Assembly: GCA_023251915.1 (NCBI GenBank)
Contig: JAHEXW010000004.1
Coordinates: 26,733-90,732 of the forward strand
From: Actinomycetes bacterium
GTDB taxonomy: Bacteria > Actinomycetota > JAHEXW01
Length of the DNA: 64,000 nt
Reading direction: 5' to 3'
In this document: positions 29,983 to 43,948 of the stretch, piece by piece
How the letters are laid out: every line of letters begins with the position of its first letter
How positions within the stretch are numbered: position 1 is the first letter of the stretch
Translations under genes and position numbers: made by a program
The notes under the pieces: model-generated
Database searches by the model: none
The model's input: the letters and a program-made list of their open reading frames with translations, nothing else
Told to the model about the DNA's origin: nothing

Positions 29983-32121
29983 GTGATCAGACACGGCACG
30001 AATAGATCTCTGTGGACAGGCATTGGCCTCGCCGTTTTTGCTTTAGGCTACCTGGCTGTCTCCTACCTGCCCGTTTCATACCCGCTAAGGTACGTGACCC
30101 AGGGAGTTTACTTCTTAGCGGGATTGTTCACCGCCGCCGCTGTCACCGGATACGCCTTATTCCGGGCTACGCGCACCAACCGGTTCTTCTGGCTGGCCGT
30201 ATTCGGCGGGACGGTAATGTTCTTGGTTGCCGAGGCTTATTGGGTGTCATACGACATGCTGGCCGGCGGCGCCGCCGCGCCGCCTCATCCTTCCTTTACC
30301 GATATCGCCAACATCATCGGCTATATTTTCCTCTATATCGCGGTCATCTCAATGGCCCGGTTCAGCCGGTCCAACGCGGTCAGTAAGGCTCGCTACTTAA
30401 CAGACACCCTTATCGTCATCCTCTTTACGACCATTATCTACTGGGCGCTGATTCTGCAACCTATGCTGGCGGATACGAATCATAAGCTTGTCGACACGGT
30501 CTTTACCTCCCTCTATCAGCTCTTAGACATCGGTTTGCTGTTTGGCATCTTGGCCAATCTCTTTGGTTTCAAGGTCAGGAACTGGCGAGCATGGGAAGGC
30601 TACGTGGCCGGCGGGGTTGTCTTACATAGTGTCGCTGATTTCGGGTTCGCGATCCTCCAGGTCAACGGAACCTACAACATTGGTAACTTGTGGGCTAACA
30701 TGACCGACATCACCTGGCTGGCGGGGTATTTTTGCTTCGCTGTCGCGGGCATCATCTTCATGCGTAAGACCGAGGCGTTATCGACAGACGACGCCGGGGC
30801 GGAGACCCTGCGCGCTATCTCCAAGTGGCAAGAAGTCGTTGTCGTTGCTGTAATCGCGATCGGATTGCCGTTCTATGTTTTGCTCGGATTGAACGCCACC
30901 CTAGTCTCGGAGCGGTGGGTGTTTTCTATCACCGGCGTGGTCGCAATCGCCCTGGCCGTGCTCTGGGGGATATTAGTTATCCAAGAGAATAACCAGCTAT
31001 TGTCGGGTACCGTAATCGACCCAATTTCAGGTCTCTTTAACGCCGAATTCTATCGAGACCGCCTGGAAGCCGAGCTTAGCCGGGCAAAACGTTTTTCGGA
31101 GACACTGTGCGTGGTAATAATCGATATCAACGGTCTGGGTCAGGTCAACAACGTGTTCGGGTATACAGCCGGCGACCAGGTCTTGGCGGATCTGGGCGGA
31201 ATCATTAGGAAGGTTGTCCGTCTATCCGATGTTGCTTGCCGGGTCGGCGGCGATGAGTTCGGCCTGATCTTGCCAGAATCGGACAAACGAGAAGCTCTCA
31301 AATTATGTCACCTGATTCAGGCTGACCTGGTTGACAAACGAGGACCGGGAGAGCCGGACGTCACTTTGGCGTGGGGCATTGCCGGCTTCCCCCAAGATGC
31401 GACAGACAGCGTTGGCCTGATGAAGACGGCCGATAATGCCGTCTACTGGCATAAATTCTATGACAACACTCAGGTTTGCATGATAGACGAACAGGCGCCG
31501 CCGGCGATGTTTGATGAAGTAGACCGGAAGAACGAGGAAAAAGCCTATTTGAAAGCCATCATGGCCATGGCGGCCGCTGTTGACGCTCGCGATCCGTTTA
31601 CGAGGTTTCATTCTAAGAATGTGGCGCGCTATGCTCGCTTGCTCGCTGAGGAAATGGGGTTGCCGGACGAGCGGGTCAAGCTGGTCGAAACGGCCGCGCT
31701 GGTGCATGACGTCGGCAAGATAGGCATTCCCGATAAGATTCTGCGGAAGCCAGAGCCTTTGAGCGCGGAGGACCGCGTCTGGGTCAGAGAGCACCCGGCG
31801 CTGGGACAAAGAATGCTGGCCGCGTCAACCGTACCGGACATACTGCCCTGGATCGCGGCGCATCACGAACATTGGGACGGCGACGGTTATCCGGCCGGTC
31901 TTAAGGGTGAGCAGATACCGCTGGAGGCGGCCATTCTATCGGTTTGCGACGCCTACGAGGCGATGACGTCGGAACGTTCTTATCGCCCCGCGATGACGCA
32001 AGAGAGAGCGTTGCTGGAGATTGAGATCAACGCCAGTGTGATGTACCATCCCGTGGTCGCGCAGATGTTTGTCGGCATGATCAAGACACAAGCGGTGTCA
32101 GACCCGTCTACTAAAGCCTAG
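29983..32121 (+). CDS. membrane sensor with GGDEF diguanylate cyclase plus HD-GYP phosphodiesterase domains
   Basis: About 9 N-terminal TM. GGDEF intact (RVGGDEFGLIL). HD-GYP: HDVGKIGIP ... HHEHWDGDGYP. GTG start. Confidence 0.8.
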   Translation: MIRHGTNRSLWTGIGLAVFALGYLAVSYLPVSYPLRYVTQGVYFLAGLFTAAAVTGYALFRATRTNRFFWLAVFGGTVMFLVAEAYWVSYDMLAGGAAAPPHPSFTDIANIIGYIFLYIAVISMARFSRSNAVSKARYLTDTLIVILFTTIIYWALILQPMLADTNHKLVDTVFTSLYQLLDIGLLFGILANLFGFKVRNWRAWEGYVAGGVVLHSVADFGFAILQVNGTYNIGNLWANMTDITWLAGYFCFAVAGIIFMRKTEALSTDDAGAETLRAISKWQEVVVVAVIAIGLPFYVLLGLNATLVSERWVFSITGVVAIALAVLWGILVIQENNQLLSGTVIDPISGLFNAEFYRDRLEAELSRAKRFSETLCVVIIDINGLGQVNNVFGYTAGDQVLADLGGIIRKVVRLSDVACRVGGDEFGLILPESDKREALKLCHLIQADLVDKRGPGEPDVTLAWGIAGFPQDATDSVGLMKTADNAVYWHKFYDNTQVCMIDEQAPPAMFDEVDRKNEEKAYLKAIMAMAAAVDARDPFTRFHSKNVARYARLLAEEMGLPDERVKLVETAALVHDVGKIGIPDKILRKPEPLSAEDRVWVREHPALGQRMLAASTVPDILPWIAAHHEHWDGDGYPAGLKGEQIPLEAAILSVCDAYEAMTSERSYRPAMTQERALLEIEINASVMYHPVVAQMFVGMIKTQAVSDPSTKA

Positions 32122-32435
32122 TCCTCACCAACCGCCGGCCGGCGGAGCAGATTGCTGATATCCCTGAACAGATTCGAAGTCGGTTCGGCGACGACGCGTC
32201 CGATCGGGTGGCGCAGCCTGGCCCCCAAGAGCTGGCCGGTGAAGAACGCCAGAACAGATACCGGCAGGATCAGAAAACCGTAGCCGAATTCCCACCTCAT
32301 CAAGACGATAAAGGGTACGGTCGTGTGAACGGCCAGGATCCAATCGAGAGTGAATTTCTGTGTATTGCCTCGCCAGTAACCGAAAGGGATGTTCATCCCG
32401 AAAACCAGGCAGACATAAAGCAGTAGCTTAAGCAT
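32118..32435 (-). CDS. hypothetical small membrane protein
   Basis: 105 aa, 3 TM. Tail-to-tail 4-bp overlap with the sensor gene. Confidence 0.4.
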   Translation of the reverse strand: MLKLLLYVCLVFGMNIPFGYWRGNTQKFTLDWILAVHTTVPFIVLMRWEFGYGFLILPVSVLAFFTGQLLGARLRHPIGRVVAEPTSNLFRDISNLLRRPAVGED

Positions 32436-32507
32436 TATTTAATTGTAACACGCGCCGTCCGGGCGACCATTCTATCGAAGCAAGACGGCATGATATAATC
32501 AAGAATA

Positions 32508-33386
32508 ATGAATGACCCGCAAAACACCTACGAAGAGCCAAGTCCAGAAGAAGGCCGCCAGCGTTCGGGCACGAGGAAGCTGGTAAAGTATTCCAGCATG
32601 ACCGGTACGATTGTTCTCGCTATCCTGGCTTTGCTGATTGTGCCCAACCTGGTTGCATTCTCACCCGCCTATTGCGGCACCTGTCACGTTGATCAATACG
32701 CGGCTTGGACGCATGCGACACACAAAAACGTTACCTGCACCGATTGTCACATTCCCCGCGACACCTGGAGCGCTTTCAAGGCCCGGATCGGCATGTTGGA
32801 CAAGCTGGTTTATCTGACGGGCATGTACGCGACAAAACACAACGTTTTGGGCTTCGAGGCCGTGCCGCAAGACAACAACTGCAATTTCTGCCACAAAGCA
32901 AAGCGAAGCGTTACCCCGGCCGGAGATCTGATAATTCCGCACGCGTCTCATACGAAGCTACAGAAACTAAGGTGTGCCCAGTGCCACAAAGAGTTAGTGC
33001 ATAGCGCCGCGGCTAAGAATGGCCACAAGCCGTCAATGATCGGATGCTATCGTTGTCATGACGGCAAGACGGCGCCGAACAGCTGCAGCGTTTGTCATAC
33101 GGAGAAGGCGCTGCCGCCGGACCACAGGGCGGCGGATTGGCTAAGAACCCACAGTGACGTCCAAAAACGCGACCCGTCCTATTGTGACGGATGCCACGGC
33201 TGGGTAGCGGACTATTGTACGGAGTGCCATAAGCGCAAGCCCCGCAGTCATGACAAGACTTGGCCCCGAGCGCATCAGGGGCTAATGGCGACTGATCGGA
33301 AAGAGGGCTGCGCGAAATGTCACGGGACACAGAAGTGCCAAAGCTGTCACACCAAGACTACTAAGTTAGCGCCGCCGAAGGTATAG
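32508..33386 (+). CDS. membrane-anchored decahaem c-type cytochrome
   Basis: Ten CxxCH motifs (CGTCH, CTDCH, CNFCH, CAQCH, CYRCH, CSVCH, CDGCH, CTECH, CAKCH, CQSCH) in 292 aa. One N-terminal TM helix. Confidence 0.8.
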   Translation: MNDPQNTYEEPSPEEGRQRSGTRKLVKYSSMTGTIVLAILALLIVPNLVAFSPAYCGTCHVDQYAAWTHATHKNVTCTDCHIPRDTWSAFKARIGMLDKLVYLTGMYATKHNVLGFEAVPQDNNCNFCHKAKRSVTPAGDLIIPHASHTKLQKLRCAQCHKELVHSAAAKNGHKPSMIGCYRCHDGKTAPNSCSVCHTEKALPPDHRAADWLRTHSDVQKRDPSYCDGCHGWVADYCTECHKRKPRSHDKTWPRAHQGLMATDRKEGCAKCHGTQKCQSCHTKTTKLAPPKV

Positions 33387-33393
33387 TGTCTGG

Positions 33394-33801
33394 CTAGGTA
33401 ACCTTAATTGTAAAGGTCAGTGATTTTAGCGGCACGACGTCGGTTTCCCAGGGTTTCCCCAAATTCAACTTGATCTTAGTCTCACCCTGCTCCAGCGCCT
33501 TATAAATCCACGTGTGTTCACCCGGTGCGCCCGCCTTATCAGATGTCGACGCGTAGTATTGGTCGCTGACTTTCTCGACGACCCGCGTGTCCATGCCGTC
33601 CGCCTGGGACCAAACATAGCCGGTCGATTCGTCAGACTCCAGAACGATGTTGATTTCGTCGCCGGCTTTTAACTCGATTGTACTGCCCGAGTTTGCCTCG
33701 GTATATTTCTTGACAGCGCCTCCGCCGCAACCTGCAAGTACGATTGCCAACAACAGCAAAACAAGCCCTGTCGCCAAATGACTAAGTCTTTTGATGCTCA
33801 T
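33394..33801 (-). CDS. chagasin-family (MEROPS I42) cysteine-protease inhibitor lipoprotein
   Basis: Lipobox LAGCGG. STGYVW, GAPGEHTW and KPWE match the I42 NPTTGY / GAPG / RPW loops. Start trimmed to MSIKRL. Confidence 0.65.
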   Translation of the reverse strand: MSIKRLSHLATGLVLLLLAIVLAGCGGGAVKKYTEANSGSTIELKAGDEINIVLESDESTGYVWSQADGMDTRVVEKVSDQYYASTSDKAGAPGEHTWIYKALEQGETKIKLNLGKPWETDVVPLKSLTFTIKVT

Positions 33802-33958
33802 GAAAGCTCTCCCTTCGATGTAAGATTGCGCCGTAACGGTTACAAGCATATATTAATCAGAAATGCTTGTGCAACACCTCACGAGACCGGAGCAATTTGC
33901 GCAAAGCGATTGGTTCCCCCTAGAATGAACTATCAGCCTAAAGGCAAGAAAGGCGGTT

Positions 33959-34861
33959 ATGGAAAGTCTCCTGAGCTTCGGGCTCGAGATAATCAGATTT
34001 GTCCAACAAATTCATGGTCCGCACCTCGATTCTTTCTTTCGCGCTGTAACGTCGTTGGGCGGAGGCGAGATATACATCCTGCTTCTGCCGGTGTTCTTTT
34101 GGTGTGTTGACACCGGACTGGGAGCGCACGCGGGCTTCATTTTCTTGATTTCCAGCTACGTGGCCAACGGTCTCAAGGATTTATGGCAGCAACCGCGGCC
34201 GTTCCAGATCGATCCAACGGTTAAGCTAGCCGATGCCGCCGGCTATGGCCTGCCAAGCTTCCATGCCCTGGAGGCAACCGTCATGTGGGGAATATTCGCC
34301 ATCTGGTTAAAGAAGCCCTGGTTTTGGGTGCTGGCCGTGACCATGATGCTGCTGATCGGGTTTTCTCGTATCTATTTAGGCGTTCATTTTCCGACTGACA
34401 TTCTGGCGGGTTACGCTATCGGCGCGCTGTTTCTGTGGATGTACGTAACGGGAGGCCACACTTTCGAGCGGTGGCTGAAAGCACTGCCCTTTAAATGGCA
34501 GGTCGGCCTGTCATTCGCCGTACCGCTTGTCCTGGCGATCAGCCACCCGACCGATGACGTCATCCTGATCATGTCGGCATTCAGCGGTTTCTGCCTCGGC
34601 CTAGCCTGTCTTTACCGTTACTTTTCCTTCAGCGCGGCCGGACCGATCTGGCAGCGCGTAGCCCGCTTCATTGTTGGCGATATCGCCATATTGTTGCTCT
34701 ACGCCGCGCCGCGCCTGTTGGGCTTCGTCAACAACCCGGGCGCACTTCATTCCCCATTACGGTACCTGCACTACGGTGCTATCGGCGTCTGGATCACATT
34801 TGGCGGTCCTTGGCTGTTCCTGAAGCTGAAACTGGCGGGTCCGGCCCTTAAGGAGGCCTAA
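33959..34861 (+). CDS. PAP2-family phosphatase (membrane)
   Basis: KDLWQQPRP, PSFHAL, SRIYLGVHFPTDILAG: the three PAP2 motifs. Confidence 0.8.
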   Translation: MESLLSFGLEIIRFVQQIHGPHLDSFFRAVTSLGGGEIYILLLPVFFWCVDTGLGAHAGFIFLISSYVANGLKDLWQQPRPFQIDPTVKLADAAGYGLPSFHALEATVMWGIFAIWLKKPWFWVLAVTMMLLIGFSRIYLGVHFPTDILAGYAIGALFLWMYVTGGHTFERWLKALPFKWQVGLSFAVPLVLAISHPTDDVILIMSAFSGFCLGLACLYRYFSFSAAGPIWQRVARFIVGDIAILLLYAAPRLLGFVNNPGALHSPLRYLHYGAIGVWITFGGPWLFLKLKLAGPALKEA

Positions 34862-34862
34862 G

Positions 34863-35603
34863 GTGCCAAAAAGAAACCAGCTGGTGTGGTTTGCTGTTGC
34901 CTTGTTGGCTGCGTCCGCAGCTCTGTACACAATTCACTTTCTGATATTCCGCAGCCTCTCTCATATCCTCATTTACGGACTGGGCGAACTGGCATTTCTC
35001 CCTATTGAAGTGCTGATCGTGTCTCTCGTTATCGAGCGGTTGTTGACGGCCAGCGAACACCGGGCGATGCTCAACAAACTGAATATGGTTATTGGTGCCT
35101 TCTTCAGCGAAGTCGGCACCGAATTCATGCGTCGCATCTTCCTATTGGACCAGAACTTCGAACACATCAGCCAAAGTTTCCAAGTCACCCCGGATTGGCC
35201 AAACAAGAGGTTCGACACGACAGCCAACCAGGTTGCCGGCCTTGACTTCCGGATCAGGGTTGACTGCCCCGCGCTGGCTAGTCTGCAAGAATTCCTTGTA
35301 GGAAAGCGGGAGTTTATGTTGCGGCTTCTGGAAAACCCGAACCTTTTGGAGCACGAGTCTTTCAGCGAACTGTTGTGGGCGGTTTTCCATCTAACCGAGG
35401 AGCTGGAAGCGCGCAGTGACGTGTCGTGCCTGTCCGCCGCGGATCGAGACCACCTGGAAATCGACGCTAAACGGGCTTATGTCGCGGTGCTGACTGAATG
35501 GGTGAGATACATGAAACACCTTAAGACAGCGTACCCGTATCTGTTTGCCATGGCCGTGCGGATGAATCCGTTCAACCCGGCCGCGCGAGCCGAACTGCCT
35601 TAG
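34863..35603 (+). CDS. hypothetical membrane protein (2 N-terminal TM plus cytoplasmic domain)
   Basis: GTG start 6 nt after AAGGAGG. No family recognised. Confidence 0.5.
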   Translation: MPKRNQLVWFAVALLAASAALYTIHFLIFRSLSHILIYGLGELAFLPIEVLIVSLVIERLLTASEHRAMLNKLNMVIGAFFSEVGTEFMRRIFLLDQNFEHISQSFQVTPDWPNKRFDTTANQVAGLDFRIRVDCPALASLQEFLVGKREFMLRLLENPNLLEHESFSELLWAVFHLTEELEARSDVSCLSAADRDHLEIDAKRAYVAVLTEWVRYMKHLKTAYPYLFAMAVRMNPFNPAARAELP

Positions 35604-35662
35604 CGCTTGCACCGAGCATCTCCCTCAGTCTAGTATATAAACATAAGTTTATATATGGAGGA

Positions 35663-36151
35663 TTGTTGACCGCTACCTATAACCTAATCCTGCTCATAGT
35701 GTGCGCCCTTGGCCTGGGATGGTCCGCGGCTAAAAGTCCGGCTAAAACCAGGCAGGCTCTGCGCGTGGGTGGCCGCCAGTTTCTAAATGTCTTGCCGTTT
35801 TTGGTTGCCGTGTTCGTCCTGATCGGCGTCCTAGAGGTATTCGTGCCGCAGCGAATTGTCAGCCTCCTCATGGGCAGCGCTAGAGGCGTCTTGGCTCCGC
35901 TCTTTGCCTCAATTATTGGCGGCGTCATGTCAGGGCCGCCAGCCGCTTCGTATCCCATGGCTCAGTTTTTGCTGCGGCAGCATGCCGGTTTGGGCGCGGT
36001 CGCGACATTTCTTATCGCTTGGGTGGCTGTGGGGACGATTTCATTGCCCGTCGAGATCAAACTCTTGGGAGCGCGATTTGCTTGGACCCGTTGGGGGCTA
36101 ACGCTGATCTTTTCCATTATTTGCGGCGTCTTTATCGGATGGTTGTTATGA
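35663..36151 (+). CDS. DUF318-type permease, N-terminal half subunit
   Basis: TTG start after GGAGGA. 5 TM. Pairs with the next gene. Confidence 0.55.
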   Translation: MLTATYNLILLIVCALGLGWSAAKSPAKTRQALRVGGRQFLNVLPFLVAVFVLIGVLEVFVPQRIVSLLMGSARGVLAPLFASIIGGVMSGPPAASYPMAQFLLRQHAGLGAVATFLIAWVAVGTISLPVEIKLLGARFAWTRWGLTLIFSIICGVFIGWLL

Positions 36152-36666
36152 AAATGCGTCAATGGTTGACGGGTAACTGGCTGGTAGTTGTCATAGCGGC
36201 TCTGTTTATCGGTCTGGTTGCGTATAATGCGGCGGGCGCCGGGCGTGCGTTGGTTATCGGGGGGCAGACCATGGCCGGGATAGCGGTAATTCTGCTGACG
36301 GTCTTCATCTTTATGGGTCTATTTACCGTCTGGGTAAAGGAAGAGTCGATTGCGCGTCACTTGGGCGAGGAATCCGGGATAAAGGGATTACTTTACGGCA
36401 CCTTGATTGGAACCATCTTTCACGGCCCCCAGGTAAGTATCTTCCCGTTTCTGCGGTCTATGCGGGACAAAGGGGCGCGCCGCGGGGTACTCGTGGCGAT
36501 CGTCAGCGCGTTTTCCATCAAGATTCCGATGATACCGCTGGAGTTGGCATTAATGGGCGCTAAGTTTACGGTCGTCCACAATGTCCTGTTGTTTCTAACG
36601 GCCCCGATACTTGCGGTGATTATGGACGCGCTTCTACGCGAACGCCACGTGCCGTCGAGTAATTAG
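36148..36666 (+). CDS. DUF318-type permease, C-terminal half subunit
   Basis: ATGA overlap with the previous gene. 5 TM. Confidence 0.55.
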   Translation: MKMRQWLTGNWLVVVIAALFIGLVAYNAAGAGRALVIGGQTMAGIAVILLTVFIFMGLFTVWVKEESIARHLGEESGIKGLLYGTLIGTIFHGPQVSIFPFLRSMRDKGARRGVLVAIVSAFSIKIPMIPLELALMGAKFTVVHNVLLFLTAPILAVIMDALLRERHVPSSN

Positions 36667-37877
36667 GCGACCGGAAGGGTAAACGTAAACGTGCTGCCGG
36701 CGCCGGGTGTGCTGACGACGTTAACGTGCCCGCCGTGCGCTTCGACAAGCAATTTGGTGATCGCCAAGCCCATCCCAGTACCGCCGGTAGTTCTGGTGCG
36801 CGCCTGGTCGACGCGATAGAAGTGTTCAAAAATATAGGGCAGGTCGGCCGCTGGGATCCCTTCGCCGTTGTCCTTGACCGCGACCTCGACCATTTTGCCT
36901 CCTGTCGCCTTAGCCCCTATTTCAATCGTGCCTTCATCGGGCGTGTGGCGCAGGGCGTTGGTTATCAGGTTATAGAAAACCTGGGTCAAACGATCGGAGT
37001 CAGCGATGACCTCGGGCACTGATCCCGCGATCTTGACTGAGAGCGTTATCTTTTTTTCCTGCAGCATCGGCTGGAGCATCTCGACGACCTTAGTGGCCAA
37101 CGGTTTTAGCGCCATTGGCTTGACGTCCAACTTCAGCTGACCCGCTTCCGCTAGAGTAAGTTCTCGCAGGTCGTTCACTAGACGGTTTAGAAGCATCGTT
37201 TCGGTGTGCAGGGCGGCGATTTTCTCCGGAGTCGGATCCTGCACCCCGTCGAGAATCGCTTCTAAGTTGCCCTGGATGATAGTTAGCGGGGTCTTAAGCT
37301 CGTGCGCCACCCCGGCGAATAACTGCCGGTTCAGCTGCTGGTTTTTGTCCAAGGTCGCCGCCATTCCGTTAAATGTACCGGCTAGCTCGCCCAGTTCATC
37401 TTTTGTCGCAACGTTGATGCGGTGATCAAGTTTACCGGCCGCAATCTCCTTGGCCGCTTGGGACATGTGGCGAACCGGTGACATCAGACGGCGGGCGAAG
37501 ATTATTCCGGTCAGGCAGGCGATGATGATGACGACGGCCGCAGACCACCAAAGAGACTCATTGACGGCTCCCAAAAAGCGTTCTTCCGGCCCGCCCATGA
37601 TATGCCGCATTATTTGGCTCATCCCGGACGAGGTTTGCATGTTCGTGTCCGATTGTACTTTGGTCAGGGTGCCGTCGGGGTTGACTATGAAGGATGGAGG
37701 CTCTTCTCTCATATAGTCGTTGAACCGGTTGTTGATAGTGTAGTTGGCAAAAACCGCAACCAGCGCGACCGAGACTAACGCGATCCCGACCATGACGAAC
37801 GCCAGTTTTACGGTTAGGCTGCGGGGATTGGCGAGTCGCCACCGGTTCATTAAATTGTCGGGCCACCGGAGTTTCAT
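36663..37877 (-). CDS. sensor histidine kinase (TM, HAMP, HisKA, HATPase_c)
   Basis: H-box FAGVAHELKTPLT. N, G1 and G2 boxes present. Confidence 0.85.
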   Translation of the reverse strand: MKLRWPDNLMNRWRLANPRSLTVKLAFVMVGIALVSVALVAVFANYTINNRFNDYMREEPPSFIVNPDGTLTKVQSDTNMQTSSGMSQIMRHIMGGPEERFLGAVNESLWWSAAVVIIIACLTGIIFARRLMSPVRHMSQAAKEIAAGKLDHRINVATKDELGELAGTFNGMAATLDKNQQLNRQLFAGVAHELKTPLTIIQGNLEAILDGVQDPTPEKIAALHTETMLLNRLVNDLRELTLAEAGQLKLDVKPMALKPLATKVVEMLQPMLQEKKITLSVKIAGSVPEVIADSDRLTQVFYNLITNALRHTPDEGTIEIGAKATGGKMVEVAVKDNGEGIPAADLPYIFEHFYRVDQARTRTTGGTGMGLAITKLLVEAHGGHVNVVSTPGAGSTFTFTLPVA

Positions 37878-38566
37878 CGTTGTTCCTGTTCAAAACGGTA
37901 ACCGACACCGTAGACCGTTCCGATGAGGCGCGGGTTTTTCGGGTCCTCTTCGATTTTCTGTCGCAGGTTCTTGATATGAGCATCGATGGTGCGCTCGTAA
38001 CCCTCGAACGAATATCCCTGAATCTCCTCTACGAGCTGGAGGCGGGTAAAGACACGCCGCGGGCTGTCAGCGAGTGTTTCCAGAAGCTTAAACTCTGTGG
38101 GAGTCAGCTCAATTACTTCGCTGCCGCGTTTAACCTCGTGGCGAAGGGAATCGATTTCCAATCCGCCGGCTCTGATAACCGGGTTTTCGGACACTTCAGC
38201 TTCGGCGCGGCGTAAGACGGCGCGGACGCGCGCCACAACCTCGCGCGGCGAGAATGGTTTGGTGATGTAGTCGTCGGCGCCTAACTCGAGACCCACTATT
38301 TTGTCCGGCTCTTCGTCGCGCGCCGTCAGCATGATGATTGGAGTATTTGATTTGGCCCTGATCTCCCGGCAAACCTCATAGCCGTTCTTCTTGGGCAGCA
38401 TCAGGTCGAGCAGAATCAGGTCGGGTTGTTCCCGGTCCGCGGCCGCGAGAGCGGCCTCGCCGTCGGCCGCTGTCACGACAGCGTAACCCTCTTTTGCCAA
38501 ATAGGAATCAAGCAATTCAATAATGCGGGGTTCGTCGTCGACGACCAGGATTTTTTTAACGGCCAT
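37874..38566 (-). CDS. OmpR-family response regulator
   Basis: REC domain (DD...D...K) plus winged-helix C-terminus. ATGA overlap with the kinase gene. Confidence 0.85.
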   Translation of the reverse strand: MAVKKILVVDDEPRIIELLDSYLAKEGYAVVTAADGEAALAAADREQPDLILLDLMLPKKNGYEVCREIRAKSNTPIIMLTARDEEPDKIVGLELGADDYITKPFSPREVVARVRAVLRRAEAEVSENPVIRAGGLEIDSLRHEVKRGSEVIELTPTEFKLLETLADSPRRVFTRLQLVEEIQGYSFEGYERTIDAHIKNLRQKIEEDPKNPRLIGTVYGVGYRFEQEQR

Positions 38567-38685
38567 TGTGCGTGTCCTCTCCTTGATACAAGGTAGATAA
38601 TATCACTTTACCAGGGATGTTTGAAGAAACTATGAAGATGAGGCGAAGATGAGGAGCCCAAATAACCGTGTGCTAGAATTAGGGC

Positions 38686-39816
38686 ATGAAAATTGTCGCC
38701 TACGTAATACGTCCCGCCGAAGGCGGAATGCTAAAACACCTCCTTGACTTGATCGGCCGCCTGGACAGAGAGCGATTTACACCTATCGTTCTTAGCCCTC
38801 CGGGTAATAATCTGGAAGAACCGCTGGAGCGGCTGGGCATCGAGCTGATTGAAGTAGATATTGCCGACAAGCCGAACCTAGCCCGCGACGTCGGCTCGAT
38901 CGCCCGTTTAGCGACAGCCTTAACAGCGGTCGGCCCGGATATTATTCACGCGCATAGTAATAAAGCGGCTTTGTTAGTTGAGATGGCCGCTCGCCGCGGT
39001 TCCCTAGATGCGGCGGTCGTTTTCTCCGTGCATAATTTTCCCAGTTATCGCGGGACCGGCGGCCTCAAGCGGGCGATATCGTCACTAGCGTTGCGGCGCG
39101 TAATAAATGGCGCGGAGGTTGTCATCGCCGTATCGCAAAGCCTCAAAGACTCTCTGGTGGAACATGAGAGAGTTGATATATCCAAGATCACAGTCGTGCA
39201 CAACGGAATCGATAGCGGAACTTTCCACCCGGTTAAAGAGGCGGAAACGCGCCGGCTGCGCGATGCTCTGGGGCTGGCGCCCAATACGCCGGTGGTGGGA
39301 ACGGTCGGACGGCTTATTCCGTCCAAGGGCATGGATGTCTTGATACAGGCGGCGCCGGAGCTGGTTCACAAATTTCCGGGCTTGAAGATAATCATTGTCG
39401 GCTCGGGCCCGATGCAGCAATCGTTGCGGTCTACGGCCGCCGGTCTGGGGTTGAGTCGAGACATCGTATTCACCGGTCACGTGGCCGAACTGCTGCCTTA
39501 TTACGCGCTCTTTGATGTCTTCGCCTTACCGACAACAGCGGAGGCGTTCGGTATGACGGCAGTCGAGGCGATGCTGGCCGGCTGTCCTGTAGTGGCGAGC
39601 CGGACGGGCGGGTTATCGGAGATAATTGCCAATCGGGAAACCGGCCTGTTGGTACCGCCGGGTGATTCCGGCGCTTTGGCGGCGGCCATAAGAGCGCAGC
39701 TCACTGATACCAGGGCAGCTAGAAAGATGGCGGCGAGAGCGCAAACGGTTGCGCGTGAGCAGTTTTCCTTAACCAGAATGGTTGCTGAAACCGAGGCGAT
39801 CTACGATAGTCTCTAG
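38686..39816 (+). CDS. GT4-family glycosyltransferase
   Basis: C-terminal EAFGMTAVEAMLAGCPVVASRTGGLSEII (E-x7-E region). Confidence 0.8.
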   Translation: MKIVAYVIRPAEGGMLKHLLDLIGRLDRERFTPIVLSPPGNNLEEPLERLGIELIEVDIADKPNLARDVGSIARLATALTAVGPDIIHAHSNKAALLVEMAARRGSLDAAVVFSVHNFPSYRGTGGLKRAISSLALRRVINGAEVVIAVSQSLKDSLVEHERVDISKITVVHNGIDSGTFHPVKEAETRRLRDALGLAPNTPVVGTVGRLIPSKGMDVLIQAAPELVHKFPGLKIIIVGSGPMQQSLRSTAAGLGLSRDIVFTGHVAELLPYYALFDVFALPTTAEAFGMTAVEAMLAGCPVVASRTGGLSEIIANRETGLLVPPGDSGALAAAIRAQLTDTRAARKMAARAQTVAREQFSLTRMVAETEAIYDSL

Positions 39817-41216
39817 AAGAACTGAACGACGTCGATCCCCAATTCCCAAGGATCAATTACCCTGATTATCGACCGAACAAAAGCCTCCGCGTTTTCGGTC
39901 CGCTCGCTCATTTCCAGGATCGCGGCTTCCGCAGGATCGAGATGTTTGCCGTTCTCGTCGATTGCTATCTTGATGCGCGGCCGGGCGAGATCAGCGGTGT
40001 TTGTCTCGTAGACAACAGCGATTTCGCCGCTATCGAGGAGGACAACAGAACCGACGGGGTAGATGGATAATGTTTGCACGAACGCTTTCATGATTACCGG
40101 GTCGAACGTGCGTCCGGATTGTCTAATCATCTCTGCCAGAACTTGGTCGGGCAGCTTGCTGCCCTTAAAGGGCCGCATCGATGTGCCTGCTTCGTAACTG
40201 TCGGCGACCTGCACGATCCGGCTGAACAGGTGAGGCCTTTCCTTGTTGGTCAGCTTGGGGTAGCCTGATAGGTCATAACCGACGTGGTGTTCGTACGCGA
40301 CAACCATGGAAAGTTTATGCATCCCCGGCATCTGGCTGAGGATTTCAGCGCCCTCGATCGGGTGGCGCTTCATGACCTCGAATTCTTCCGGCGTCAACGG
40401 CATAGGCTTGGTTGTCAGGTCCTTGGGAACGTTGACCTTACCGATGTCGTGCAGCAACGCCGCGGCGCCTAGAATAGCCAGTTTGTCGTGTTCGAGCGAC
40501 AAATTATTGCCCAAGCTCAGGCAGAGGATACACGTGTTGACGGAGTGATAAAAGGTCGTTTCGTCGTAGCTCTTGATAACGGTCAGGCCGAGCAGGTTAA
40601 GGTGGTCGGTGAAGAGCGCCTCTGTCAAACCGCCGACAATCTTCTCGACCTTCTGTACGCTCACCCCTTGCCCGATCTTTGCGCTCTTCATTATGTCTTT
40701 AACCGCTGTTACCGCGGAGTTGTAGACTTCCTTGGCCGCTTTTGTTTCCGTTTCTTCATGCTCGATATCATCGGCTTCGGCGGCGGCGGAGCTGATAACA
40801 ATGTTGGGCGCGCCCCGGTTCTTCAGGCGGTTCGCCAGGCCGCCCTCATTTTCGAGCGTTTGCCTGTCGGTACACAAGGCGTCCATAAGGGCTTCGATCT
40901 CGGTTTCATCGATTCCTTTTAGGAAGGTGATGGCGCCGATGTCCATGGCAGCGCATTCCTTGATAAAGCCGGCGTAGGTGACGCTTTCGCGTATCAGGAG
41001 TTCACTTTCGATAAAGAGGTCGTCATCGTGCATCGCGTATGTGATGTCGCCCAGCTGATCCAAGAGACTGCTAAGGGAGCGGTGCAGACGTTTTGAACCG
41101 TCAAGGAGTTCCGGATGTTGGGCGGGATAAAGCAGTGTCTTGCGCTTTAGCGCGACCATTTGTTCGAAGACTATTTTTGCGTCTGCAAGTTGAGTGCTGT
41201 TCAGTGTCTTTGGCAT
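39813..41216 (-). CDS. HD-GYP domain protein with N-terminal DUF3391-like domain
   Basis: HDIGKVNVP ... HHVGYDLSGYP. Confidence 0.7.
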   Translation of the reverse strand: MPKTLNSTQLADAKIVFEQMVALKRKTLLYPAQHPELLDGSKRLHRSLSSLLDQLGDITYAMHDDDLFIESELLIRESVTYAGFIKECAAMDIGAITFLKGIDETEIEALMDALCTDRQTLENEGGLANRLKNRGAPNIVISSAAAEADDIEHEETETKAAKEVYNSAVTAVKDIMKSAKIGQGVSVQKVEKIVGGLTEALFTDHLNLLGLTVIKSYDETTFYHSVNTCILCLSLGNNLSLEHDKLAILGAAALLHDIGKVNVPKDLTTKPMPLTPEEFEVMKRHPIEGAEILSQMPGMHKLSMVVAYEHHVGYDLSGYPKLTNKERPHLFSRIVQVADSYEAGTSMRPFKGSKLPDQVLAEMIRQSGRTFDPVIMKAFVQTLSIYPVGSVVLLDSGEIAVVYETNTADLARPRIKIAIDENGKHLDPAEAAILEMSERTENAEAFVRSIIRVIDPWELGIDVVQFF

Positions 41217-41234
41217 CTATACCTCATCAATATA

Positions 41235-43256
41235 CTATACAGTATTGGCGGGGCGCAGCTGCGCAATCGCGCGTTGCGCCGTTTCTCTTAGAGACTTGGC
41301 CTTACTGCGAAAAGCTCGCTTCCGGGCGATTGCCTCCAGAACCGGCAGAGCCTGAGCGTCTCCGATTGCCCCTAGTGTCTGGATTGCCTGCAGCCGGTTG
41401 TCCAGATTTCGGAAGCGAAAATCGTTTTCGGACGCCAGCGCGGTCAATTTCGATATCGCTGCGGTCGCCTTGAGCGAGCCCAGCGCCAAGAACGCGGCTT
41501 CCCGGACATGTTCCGACTCGTCATCTAAGCTGACGGTTATCAGCGGGGCACCGGCAACGCCGCGGGACGACGCCAACGCGCGAATCGTCTCGACTCGCAC
41601 GCCTTCATCTTCGTGGCGCAGGGCCCGCTTTAGAATATCGGTCGCTCTGGGTTCGTCGAATTCACACACAACCCAGATGACGGCCTTGACTATCCTGGTG
41701 TCTCCCGTCAAACGGCGCTCGAATATCTCCATCGTTCCGTTGCTGACGTGGGCCGCTATCTTATAAAGCTTGCGCCGCTCTTCCGTATTGGTTTCCGCCG
41801 CGATCATATCCAGCAGGCCCGGAATAGCGCCAGGTCCGAGCATATCCATCATCGCTCGCCCGTATTTCTTCTCGTCCGGGTCCTGGCTTTTCATGGCCGC
41901 GGTCATGATTACGTCCATATTGGCCGCGTCCGCCAGCTTCAGCAGGGCATCCCGGGTTAGCGTTACCAGCTCGGGTGATGTTTTCATCAGCTGCTGGCCT
42001 TTGAGTCGCATTGCCTTCATCGACTTGGCCGCCAGCTCCAGACGATGTTCGCGGAAAAGATCAGCGACTGCTTCCGTTAAACTGTCCAAGATTTTCGTCA
42101 GGTGGGGACCGTCTTCCGTCTCAATGAGCATCTCAACCAACGTTTCAATTGCCTGTTCCTCAACGTCCTCCATCTGGATGGCCGCGATTTCTTCCTCGAC
42201 CGACGCCGCCACGGACGCGGGCAGATCGTCATAGAAGTGCGCGAATTCGAAGTAGACCTCTTCCGGGCTGAGGCGGATATCTTCCCCCGGCGGCGCGACC
42301 GTCGCGGGCTCGCCCGATTCCTGGTAACCGGCTGTTTGTTCGGCCGCCATGTTTAGGGCCTGGCTTAGCGCAGCCAGCAACTCCGGACCGAAATCCAGCG
42401 CGGCGAAACGTTCTTGCATCAGGTCTACAATCGGGTTCTTAAAGTCGTCGGCGAGTGTGGTTACGCCGGTGGTGATGTTTTCGAAAATCTCTTCCTTGTC
42501 CTCGACTCCGGCCCCGTTCGCGACCGATGCGATCGCCTCAATGGCGCCGGCAACATAGTCTGCGCGGCCCTCAAGACTGGGGTCGCCGTCGGCCGAAGCT
42601 GCTAAGTCGGACAGTTTTACGAGCAGTTTGGCGGTATTGACCGGCCCTTGTTTTGCGCGGAGGATGATTTTGTCGATCTCGTTGGCGGAAAGCTCGCCCT
42701 CGCGCAACAACATAAACATCTCTTCCGCCGATAAGATCTCATCATCGCTATCGCCAAAATCCAGCTCTTCAACCAGCTCGTCGGCGATTGCCTCGACCTC
42801 GAGCCGTTTGGCGACGATGTTTTGTACCCGCATCTCGTCGAGGATGTTCTCTATGCCGCCCCGGCGGCGCACTTCGTTCACATCAAGGGCCATCGCGTCC
42901 AAAAAGGAATCAAGCTCCTCATCCCGAACGATTTCGTTTATGAGAATGCTGGTTATCTGACGGTCATGAAGATGGGCCGCAAGGCCAAGATAGAAACCGC
43001 CGGCTGCCATCCCGTATTCCGTGCCTTCGACAATGATGCTGTCCCGGGTTACGCCGAACTTTAGAATCTCCCGGCCTTTCAGATAGTCGTGCAAGAGAGC
43101 GTAGAGATCGGTGCGCGCTTCCAGGCTCATGGGGTGCGAGGGGGAGTAAACGAGACTCTTCTTTATGGCTCCGTTGAAGGCCTTAAAAAGTGTGTCGAAA
43201 ATCTCTGTGTTCGCTGCGTTGGCGACGTTATCGTCCATGCGCTTAAGTGTAGACAT
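41235..43256 (-). CDS. HEAT/PBS-lyase repeat protein with N-terminal domain paralogous to that of the HD-GYP protein
   Basis: C-terminal HEAT-like repeats (...EGVRVETIRALA..., ...EHVREAAFLALG...). Start trimmed to MSTLKR to avoid overlap with nth. Confidence 0.55.
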   Translation of the reverse strand: MSTLKRMDDNVANAANTEIFDTLFKAFNGAIKKSLVYSPSHPMSLEARTDLYALLHDYLKGREILKFGVTRDSIIVEGTEYGMAAGGFYLGLAAHLHDRQITSILINEIVRDEELDSFLDAMALDVNEVRRRGGIENILDEMRVQNIVAKRLEVEAIADELVEELDFGDSDDEILSAEEMFMLLREGELSANEIDKIILRAKQGPVNTAKLLVKLSDLAASADGDPSLEGRADYVAGAIEAIASVANGAGVEDKEEIFENITTGVTTLADDFKNPIVDLMQERFAALDFGPELLAALSQALNMAAEQTAGYQESGEPATVAPPGEDIRLSPEEVYFEFAHFYDDLPASVAASVEEEIAAIQMEDVEEQAIETLVEMLIETEDGPHLTKILDSLTEAVADLFREHRLELAAKSMKAMRLKGQQLMKTSPELVTLTRDALLKLADAANMDVIMTAAMKSQDPDEKKYGRAMMDMLGPGAIPGLLDMIAAETNTEERRKLYKIAAHVSNGTMEIFERRLTGDTRIVKAVIWVVCEFDEPRATDILKRALRHEDEGVRVETIRALASSRGVAGAPLITVSLDDESEHVREAAFLALGSLKATAAISKLTALASENDFRFRNLDNRLQAIQTLGAIGDAQALPVLEAIARKRAFRSKAKSLRETAQRAIAQLRPANTV

Positions 43257-43312
43257 AAGCGGTGGATTTGGCAATTTGTGGTAGGCTTTTGTCAGGTTGG
43301 GAGGCTGCGGAA

Positions 43313-43948
43313 TTGGACACAAGGCAAAGAGCGATCGAAATAATCAAACGCCTAAGGGCCGTCTATCCAAACGCCAAGATAGCACTCAAATTCAGTAATA
43401 ACTGGGAGCTGCTTGTAGCGACGGAGTTATCGGCTCAATGCACGGACAAGAAAGTGAACGAAGTCACTGGGACATTGTTTAATAAATATCGAACAGTCGC
43501 CGATTATGCCCACGCCGGCGTCGCCGAGTTTGAGCAAGACATTAGGCCGACGGGTTTCTTTCGCAACAAGACGAAGAATATTATTGGCGCGGCGCAGATG
43601 GTCCTGACCGAGTTTGACGGGCAAGTGCCGCGCACGATGACGGAGATACTTCGCTTGCCGGGCGTCGCGCGCAAGACCGCGAACATTGTTCTGGGCAACG
43701 CGTACGGCGTCGTGGACGGGATAGCCGTCGATACTCATGTGCTGCGCCTGTCGCGCCGGTTGGGCCTCAGCGACGGCAAAACACCGGAGATGGTAGAGCG
43801 TGACCTCATGGCATTGTGGCCGAAAGATGACTGGTTTGGGGCGACCTACCTGGTGATTGAGCATGGTCGCGCCATCTGCACGGCCAAAAAACCGCAATGT
43901 GGGTCTTGCGTATTAAACGACATCTGTCCTTCCGCTTTCAAGGTCTGA
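43313..43948 (+). CDS. nth: endonuclease III
   Basis: HhH-GPD (LPGVARKTANIVL) and a 4Fe-4S cluster C-x6-C-x2-C-x5-C (CTAKKPQCGSCVLNDIC). TTG start 8 nt after GGGAGG; ATG at 43262 is an alternative. Confidence 0.8.
   Translation: MDTRQRAIEIIKRLRAVYPNAKIALKFSNNWELLVATELSAQCTDKKVNEVTGTLFNKYRTVADYAHAGVAEFEQDIRPTGFFRNKTKNIIGAAQMVLTEFDGQVPRTMTEILRLPGVARKTANIVLGNAYGVVDGIAVDTHVLRLSRRLGLSDGKTPEMVERDLMALWPKDDWFGATYLVIEHGRAICTAKKPQCGSCVLNDICPSAFKV

Follow-up and report, generated by a model that had tools for sequence, protein, structure and literature searches.

Proteins with an HD-GYP domain form the less understood class of enzymes hydrolyzing c-di-GMP (cyclic dimeric guanosine monophosphate), and the inputs of most members without a REC domain are not known. 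The architectures compiled in a 2021 census include REC, GAF, PAS, DUF3391, DUF3369 and MASE9-12 domains (Galperin & Chou, doi 10.1101/2021.11.05.467447). According to work cited in that account, HD-GYP proteins of the RpfG type act via protein partners, RpfG itself with GGDEF proteins (Galperin & Chou, 2021). Here, a 64,000-nt stretch of an Actinomycetes bacterium (assembly GCA_023251915.1, contig JAHEXW010000004.1, positions 26,733 to 90,732; hereafter "the window," to which coordinates refer unless a locus is named) is considered, in which two adjacent genes encode a predicted HD-GYP phosphodiesterase, B, and a HEAT-repeat protein, C, which share an N-terminal domain of about 140 residues. 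Neither this domain nor HEAT partners are mentioned in the 2021 census, and a literature search found neither the pair nor the domain described and retrieved no paper linking HEAT repeats with HD-GYP enzymes. We consider it slightly better than an even chance that C is a subunit that regulates or scaffolds an active phosphodiesterase, B, within a conserved two-gene c-di-GMP module; the physical association of the two proteins, its interface and the direction of regulation are the parts of this reading that we infer.

Gene C (41235-43256, minus strand; 673 residues, based on the list of open reading frames (ORFs), Pfam HEAT_2 and the family alignment) ends 18 nt upstream of the start of gene B on the same strand (39813-41216; 467 residues, based on the ORF list, HD_5 and alignment with the structurally characterized PmGH). 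No terminator-like site was found between them on the coding strand, and a promoter and terminator scan of 39500-43700 returned counts at chance level. In every locus examined, a HEAT_2 gene encoding 561-723 residues lies directly upstream of an HD-GYP gene carrying the N-terminal domain. The sample, drawn from contigs long enough to show neighbors, comprises the window, L001-L004, L006 and L009-L018 and amounts to about 15 distinct loci, as L001/L006 and L010/L011 are identical in sequence. L001-L004, L006 and L009 stem from close to moderately distant Actinomycetota metagenome-assembled genomes (MAGs), L012 from Gemmatimonadales and L013 from Coriobacteriia, the taxonomic breadth being based on the few source names available; the HEAT protein of L010/L011 is 26% identical. 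The stop codon of the HEAT gene and the start codon of the HD-GYP gene overlap by 4-26 nt in most loci, with a gap of 18-30 nt in four and of 151 nt in one. The flanking genes are altogether different: the Actinomycetota clade has nth divergently upstream, L013 and L015 have maf, the pair of L012 and L018 is flanked by trpB and trpA, and L014 carries coaE, uvrB and a gene for a HAD hydrolase; the conserved unit therefore consists of exactly two genes. The HEAT and HD-GYP genes are a fixed, co-inherited and often translationally coupled pair across several phyla.

In the window, the divergent neighbor of gene C is an endonuclease III (HhH-GPD) gene at 43262-43948 on the plus strand. Its position is kept in the annotated Actinomycetota relatives L001 and L009, and ORFs of similar size are found there in L002-L004 and L006; in other phyla, the gene does not occupy this place. 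At the Gemmatimonadales-type loci (L012, 2120-7257; L018, 1013-6287), the pair sits between trpB (PALP) and trpA (Trp_syntA) within a tryptophan-biosynthesis gene string, and stops and starts overlap on both sides.

The N-terminal regions of the two proteins, residues ~11-153 of C (42798-43226, minus strand) and ~5-149 of B (40770-41204, minus strand), are homologous. BLASTP of B against C yielded a single significant segment of 125 residues with 23% identity (E 7e-6), and hhalign of 19 HEAT-family N-termini against eight HD-GYP-partner N-termini aligned residues 20-152 of the former with residues 13-144 of the latter over 132 columns with a probability of 98.4% (E 8.8e-15). Profiles built separately from 28 HD-GYP N-termini and 13 HEAT N-termini recognize the opposite family: the HD-GYP-only profile matches the HEAT partner over the full domain length in 14 of 14 loci with 43-99 bits (66 bits on C, residues 11-153), and the HEAT-only profile matches every HD-GYP partner of these loci. 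The original prediction, in which an alignment by eye had suggested similar, paralogous N-terminal domains attached to a repeat scaffold in one case and to an enzyme in the other, is thereby borne out. In a rough neighbor-joining tree, the HEAT-type domains form one clade and the HD-GYP-type domains fall outside it in two groups, one of which (L012/L017/L018) lies nearer to the tandem copies described below; on both sides, the loci fall into the same groups. Identity is no higher within a locus than across loci (19 vs. 17%), a pattern consistent with an early duplication, after which the two copies were inherited together and did not undergo gene conversion.

In B, the shared domain is followed by a helical linker (residues 150-204) and the HD-GYP catalytic domain, which was delimited by the PmGH alignment (residues ~205-375; 40092-40604, minus strand). 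Pfam matches B with HD_5 (81.6 bits) and HD (58.4 bits), and its best relative in the PDB is PmGH (4MCW, E 1e-21). On this alignment, the metal ligands H224, H256-D257, H285, H310-H311 and D339 are all present, as are G318-Y319-P320 and R348-P-F-K351, the RxxK motif at the guanine-binding position. The active-site positions (H...HD...H...HH...D) are retained in 112-117 of 117 relatives, and GYP is invariant (117/117). HHVGYDLSGYP, the motif by which B had originally been recognized as an HD-GYP protein, is indeed present and represents a variant of HHExh(D/N)GxGYP with a hydrophobic residue for Glu and Leu for the first Gly; the signature of the subfamily reads HH-hydrophobic-xx-(D/N)-L-x-GYP instead of HHExxDGxGYP. 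As judged from its conserved residues, B is likely a catalytically competent HD-GYP phosphodiesterase with an intact active site.

The position of the third-metal ligand Glu185 of PmGH is occupied by Thr220 in B and by Tyr in 75 of the 117 relatives. The lack of this type of ligand marks the binuclear HD-GYP type (Galperin & Chou, 2021), and the metal center of B is probably binuclear. An RxxK motif (RxY[K/R]) favors c-di-GMP over cyclic GMP-AMP (cGAMP), while RxxQ has been linked to a preference for cGAMP (Galperin & Chou, 2021). As the RxxK motif is kept, c-di-GMP is the predicted substrate of B. The last residue of the motif varies among the 117 relatives (column of K351: Gln 29, Arg 25, Lys 23, Ala 20) and, given the link between Gln and cGAMP, the substrate may therefore vary among members of the module, some of which could degrade cGAMP instead of c-di-GMP. 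The catalytic domain of B is followed by a conserved C-terminal extension of ~92 residues (LSIYPVGSVVLLDSGEIAVV...; residues 376-467; 39816-40091, minus strand), which is present in 43 of 49 representatives with the shared domain and HD-GYP, and for which Pfam and NCBIfam gave no match and hence no family assignment. In the L010-type clade (L010, 3677-5155; P0046-P0049), YD (LLYDLGK) takes the place of HD in the HD-GYP partner, and the HEAT partner is still kept; these members may be catalytically impaired.

C is composed of the shared N-terminal domain, a helical middle region of ~350 residues and C-terminal HEAT/PBS-lyase-type repeats (residues ~510-673; 41238-41729, minus strand). It had been described as a HEAT/PBS-lyase-repeat protein of 675 residues directly upstream of B on the same strand, which holds apart from the length, the chosen ATG giving 673. 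The repeats exceed the Pfam cut-offs for HEAT_2 (65.8 bits, cut-off 27.7; residues 542-616 plus others), HEAT (24.1 bits, cut-off 23.5) and HEAT_PBS (23.2 bits, cut-off 20.9), and NCBIfam indicates a weak NblB/CpcE-type HEAT similarity in this region. The family comprises ~25 close proteins in Actinomycetota MAGs. PilZ, GGDEF, EAL or I-site similarity was not found in C (Pfam at E up to 1; NCBIfam at 0.01), so that, by these searches, C carries neither a catalytic domain nor a known c-di-GMP receptor domain. Within the otherwise variable middle region, residues 327-343 (42228-42278, minus strand) form a strongly conserved motif, RLSPEEVYFEFAHFYDD, of which about a dozen residues do not vary among 19 members of the family with identities as low as 34%.

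The shared domain was modeled with AlphaFold2 from 41 mixed sequences, yielding a predicted local distance difference test score (pLDDT) of 90.5 and a predicted template modeling score (pTM) of 0.82. The model starts with two long helices (4-36, 42-59), followed by a b-b-b-a-b-a-a-a-b succession of strands 64-69, 74-76 and 79-81, helix 87-98, strand 101-107, helices 112-122, 126-131 and 135-141, and strand 147-151. The domain is thus predicted to begin with a hairpin of two helices and to continue with an alpha/beta unit, and its single invariant residue is Tyr37 (C numbering), corresponding to Tyr30 in B. The initial description as DUF3391-like was not upheld. DUF3391 (PF11871) scores 16.2 bits on B (cut-off 27.8), and this match involves only profile positions 89-135 and falls on residues 143-189, where the helical linker follows the shared domain; none of the 41 N-terminal domains matches DUF3391 at E up to 1. 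Furthermore, DUF3391 has its four beta strands ahead of its two long helices in the Bd1817 structure (Galperin & Chou, 2021), whereas the two long helices come first in the model of the shared domain. A BTB/POZ fold, indicated by a weak match to a BCL6 BTB profile (E 0.014), was rejected as unsupported by either structure search. The 41 domains matched no Pfam family consistently at E up to 1, NCBIfam gave nothing for the region, and no significant neighbor was found in the PDB by sequence searches or by structure searches, which compared predicted models with PDB libraries. The shared domain is undescribed, having no Pfam or NCBIfam family and no solved relative in these searches.

The domain is abundant: from 1.84 billion representative proteins, a profile of the mixed HEAT-type and HD-GYP-type alignment retrieved 10,203 at E<=1e-3, of which 4,555 reached E<=1e-10; a word-index search with the HD-GYP N-terminus fragment alone found two proteins, and a full-length alignment search was needed. 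The best 150 of the 10,203 were inspected, and the best 144 new hits were classified with local hidden Markov models and Pfam. Among these 144, 49 combine the domain with HD-GYP, and the C-terminal extension seen in B is shared by 43 of these; 36 show GGDEF followed further on by two copies of the domain, with or without HEAT repeats, and 22 have one or two copies followed by HEAT repeats; the remainder are mostly short domain-only pieces and probably fragments. All classifiable contexts among the best 144 hits involve a c-di-GMP enzyme or HEAT repeats. In P0158 and P0167, Pfam identifies GGDEF, AAA_16/nSTAND1, two tandem shared domains and HEAT_2, to which P0184 adds SpoIIE. A search with the full-length HD-GYP profile found at least 768 proteins at E<=1e-30 among 8,000 candidates scored, with named sources in Actinomycetota, Coriobacteriia, Gemmatimonadales/Gemmatimonadetes and one bin labeled Bacteroidetes. 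The GGDEF-STAND-HEAT proteins of ~1400 residues (P0158, P0167, P0184 and about 35 others) were without a description in our literature searches.

A regulatory link between C and B is likely because the operon is conserved in every examined locus, and to this extent the original idea of C as a regulator stands; its other half, a degenerate c-di-GMP receptor, is taken up below. In the mechanism we propose, C and B are co-transcribed, B acts as the phosphodiesterase with the shared domain as its input domain, and C, a non-enzymatic subunit, carries an ancient paralog of this domain joined to the helical middle region and the HEAT repeats. C would associate with B, most simply via the paralogous N-terminal domains, and a ligand of the HEAT superhelix could thereby be coupled through C to the phosphodiesterase activity or location of B. 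A broader and more tentative proposal, to which we assign somewhat less than an even chance, is that the shared domain is a coupling or heterodimerization module between HEAT sensor scaffolds and c-di-GMP enzymes, operating in trans in the operon and in cis in the giant GGDEF-STAND-HEAT proteins.

Several observations weigh against a direct association of C with B. The natural tandem of P0147, modeled with AlphaFold2 from 17 sequences, reached a pLDDT of 87 and a pTM of only 0.50, so that the model offers no confident domain-domain packing. A clean Rosetta-stone fusion in the GGDEF-STAND proteins was rejected, as the tandem copies form their own sister clades and differences in profile score did not separate them into HEAT-type and HD-GYP-type; only in the P0147 type is a HEAT-type copy followed by an HD-GYP-type copy, as seen in one protein and a crude tree. 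The tandem model and the tree of the tandem copies neither support nor exclude contact between the domains. The only apparent fusions of HEAT-type and HD-GYP-type proteins, P0215 (1250 residues) and P0287 (1079 residues), between them show both possible orders; they may be artifacts of gene calling or of a frameshift and are not relied on, as a stretch rich in Arg, Gly and Ala in P0215 resembles an out-of-frame translation. Lastly, the few conserved polar residues of the shared domain (the invariant Tyr37, a basic Lys/Arg at position 32, and Glu113 in 85%) would suit a protein-contact domain, yet are also compatible with a small ligand site.

These same residues bear on the alternative that survives best, in which the domain is a small-molecule or signal sensor acting independently on C and on B, both of which would answer to one cue without contacting each other, with a separate output of C mediated by its HEAT repeats. 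Tyr37, Lys/Arg32 and Glu113 form the kind of small polar set such a sensor might use, the domain is N-terminal and followed by a helical linker, where the sensory domains of HD-GYP proteins sit, and the tandem model shows no fixed packing. Parallel sensing is nonetheless unlikely in our estimation.

That C is instead a degenerate c-di-GMP receptor, which would buffer or relay c-di-GMP levels via the shared domain or the HEAT region, is a good deal less probable. Nucleotide binding is conceivable, as the domain occurs only alongside enzymes making or breaking c-di-GMP. The receptor reading, part of the original prediction, is countered by the scan of C, in which nothing similar to PilZ, an I-site, EAL or GGDEF appeared at E up to 1, and by the absence of a conserved Arg-rich motif, a Tyr being the sole invariant residue. 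Moreover, known c-di-GMP receptors were not among the structural neighbors of the domain, matches to PelD having a Foldseek E above 1 and a template modeling score of 0.18.

Smaller still is the probability that the pair acts together with a third gene, A, in one 13-kb c-di-GMP regulon. All three genes were found where the original prediction had placed them, by the ORF list and Pfam, and that prediction had joined them in a dense cluster. Gene A (29983-32121, plus strand; 712 residues, based on the ORF list, Pfam and motifs) encodes a membrane protein with Pfam matches to GGDEF (96 bits) and HD_5 (118 bits). It carries GGDEF at residue 422, RLSD (an RxxD I-site) five residues before it, HD at residue 575 and HHEHWDGDGYP, and by these motifs (GGDEF, RxxD I-site, HD, HHExxDGxGYP) qualifies as a predicted GGDEF/HD-GYP hybrid. 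The prediction of an intact GGDEF and an HD-GYP domain in a membrane protein is therefore retained, whereas Kyte-Doolittle hydropathy gives ~10 hydrophobic segments in the first 333 residues instead of nine transmembrane segments. The three genes lie within 13.3 kb and are the sole ORFs with GGDEF, HD-GYP or the shared domain in the window. However, A is 7.7 kb away from the pair and separated from it by nine unrelated genes on both strands, including those for a decaheme cytochrome, a lipoprotein, a PAP2 phosphatase, membrane proteins and permeases, an OmpR-type regulator with its kinase and a glycosyltransferase. A search of the window ORFs did not find the shared domain in A, and in distant genomes the pair occurs alone in quite different neighborhoods, as far as the fetched flanks extend. 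The three-gene cluster thus reduces to the two-gene pair; nothing ties A to C and B, and its membership in their module is not supported. Among the intervening genes, 32508-33386 (plus strand) encodes a NapC/NirT-like multiheme cytochrome of 292 residues, which has a membrane anchor at its N-terminus and ten heme-binding CxxCH motifs.

Finally, the reading that helical regions at the two N-termini resemble each other by chance or through composition, as a pairwise identity of only 23% might suggest, has next to no probability and is excluded by the hhalign result and the full-length reciprocal profiles across 14 loci, and a single AlphaFold2 model built from the mixed alignment reaches high confidence. 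Membership of the pair in an anti-phage defense system was also rejected, since PADLOC returned only generic HD (Cas3/Cas10 HD) and HEAT-ARM matches with weak scores.

If C regulates B as a subunit, the pair would represent a new way in which the turnover of c-di-GMP, or of cGAMP where the motif is RxxQ, is controlled. Such control would apply to a large HD-GYP subfamily with at least 768 close relatives (E<=1e-30) and thousands more by profile, in which the HEAT partner is present in every locus examined, and would provide a handle on the ~1400-residue GGDEF-STAND-HEAT proteins sharing the cassette. Should the coupling-module proposal be correct, the pair would define a new class of accessory-subunit-regulated cyclic-dinucleotide phosphodiesterases in several phyla.

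Among described systems, B resembles the Bd1817 family (Bd1817, PA4108, VC2497), whose members are likewise HD-GYP proteins of the cytoplasm, in which a non-REC domain of ~120-150 residues at the N-terminus precedes a long helical linker, the HD-GYP domain and a C-terminal extension, and whose active members keep the metal ligands and GYP intact. In contrast to B, their N-terminal domain is DUF3391, with four strands and two long helices, instead of two long helices followed by an alpha/beta unit; Bd1817 aligns with B over the HD-GYP domain only in a PDB sequence search, and no HEAT partner has been described for this family. The GAF-HD-GYP protein PmGH is close to B in its catalytic domain, in which H, HD, H, HH, D, GYP and RxxK are kept, but differs in having Glu185 where B has Thr220 and HHExxDGxGYP where the subfamily of B has HH-hydrophobic-xx-D/N-L-x-GYP, and the N-terminal domain of B is unrelated to GAF.

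As far as the cited account of RpfG-type proteins goes, the dependence of HD-GYP function on protein-protein contacts is a feature that B would share with them, whereas here the putative partner is non-enzymatic, encoded in the same operon and equipped with a paralogous domain, and B has no REC domain. STAND nucleoside triphosphatases (NTPases) with C-terminal repeat sensors (AAA_16/nSTAND plus TPR or HEAT) provide a further comparison, as the ~1400-residue relatives share their effector-NTPase-sensor layout, with the cassette of shared domain and HEAT repeats in the sensor position. The C-B pair differs from them in lacking the NTPase, the cassette standing alone as C and the HD-GYP effector forming a separate polypeptide. 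Compared with these systems, the pair combines an enzyme of a known class with an input domain not described before and with a partner that is obligate, paralogous and non-enzymatic.

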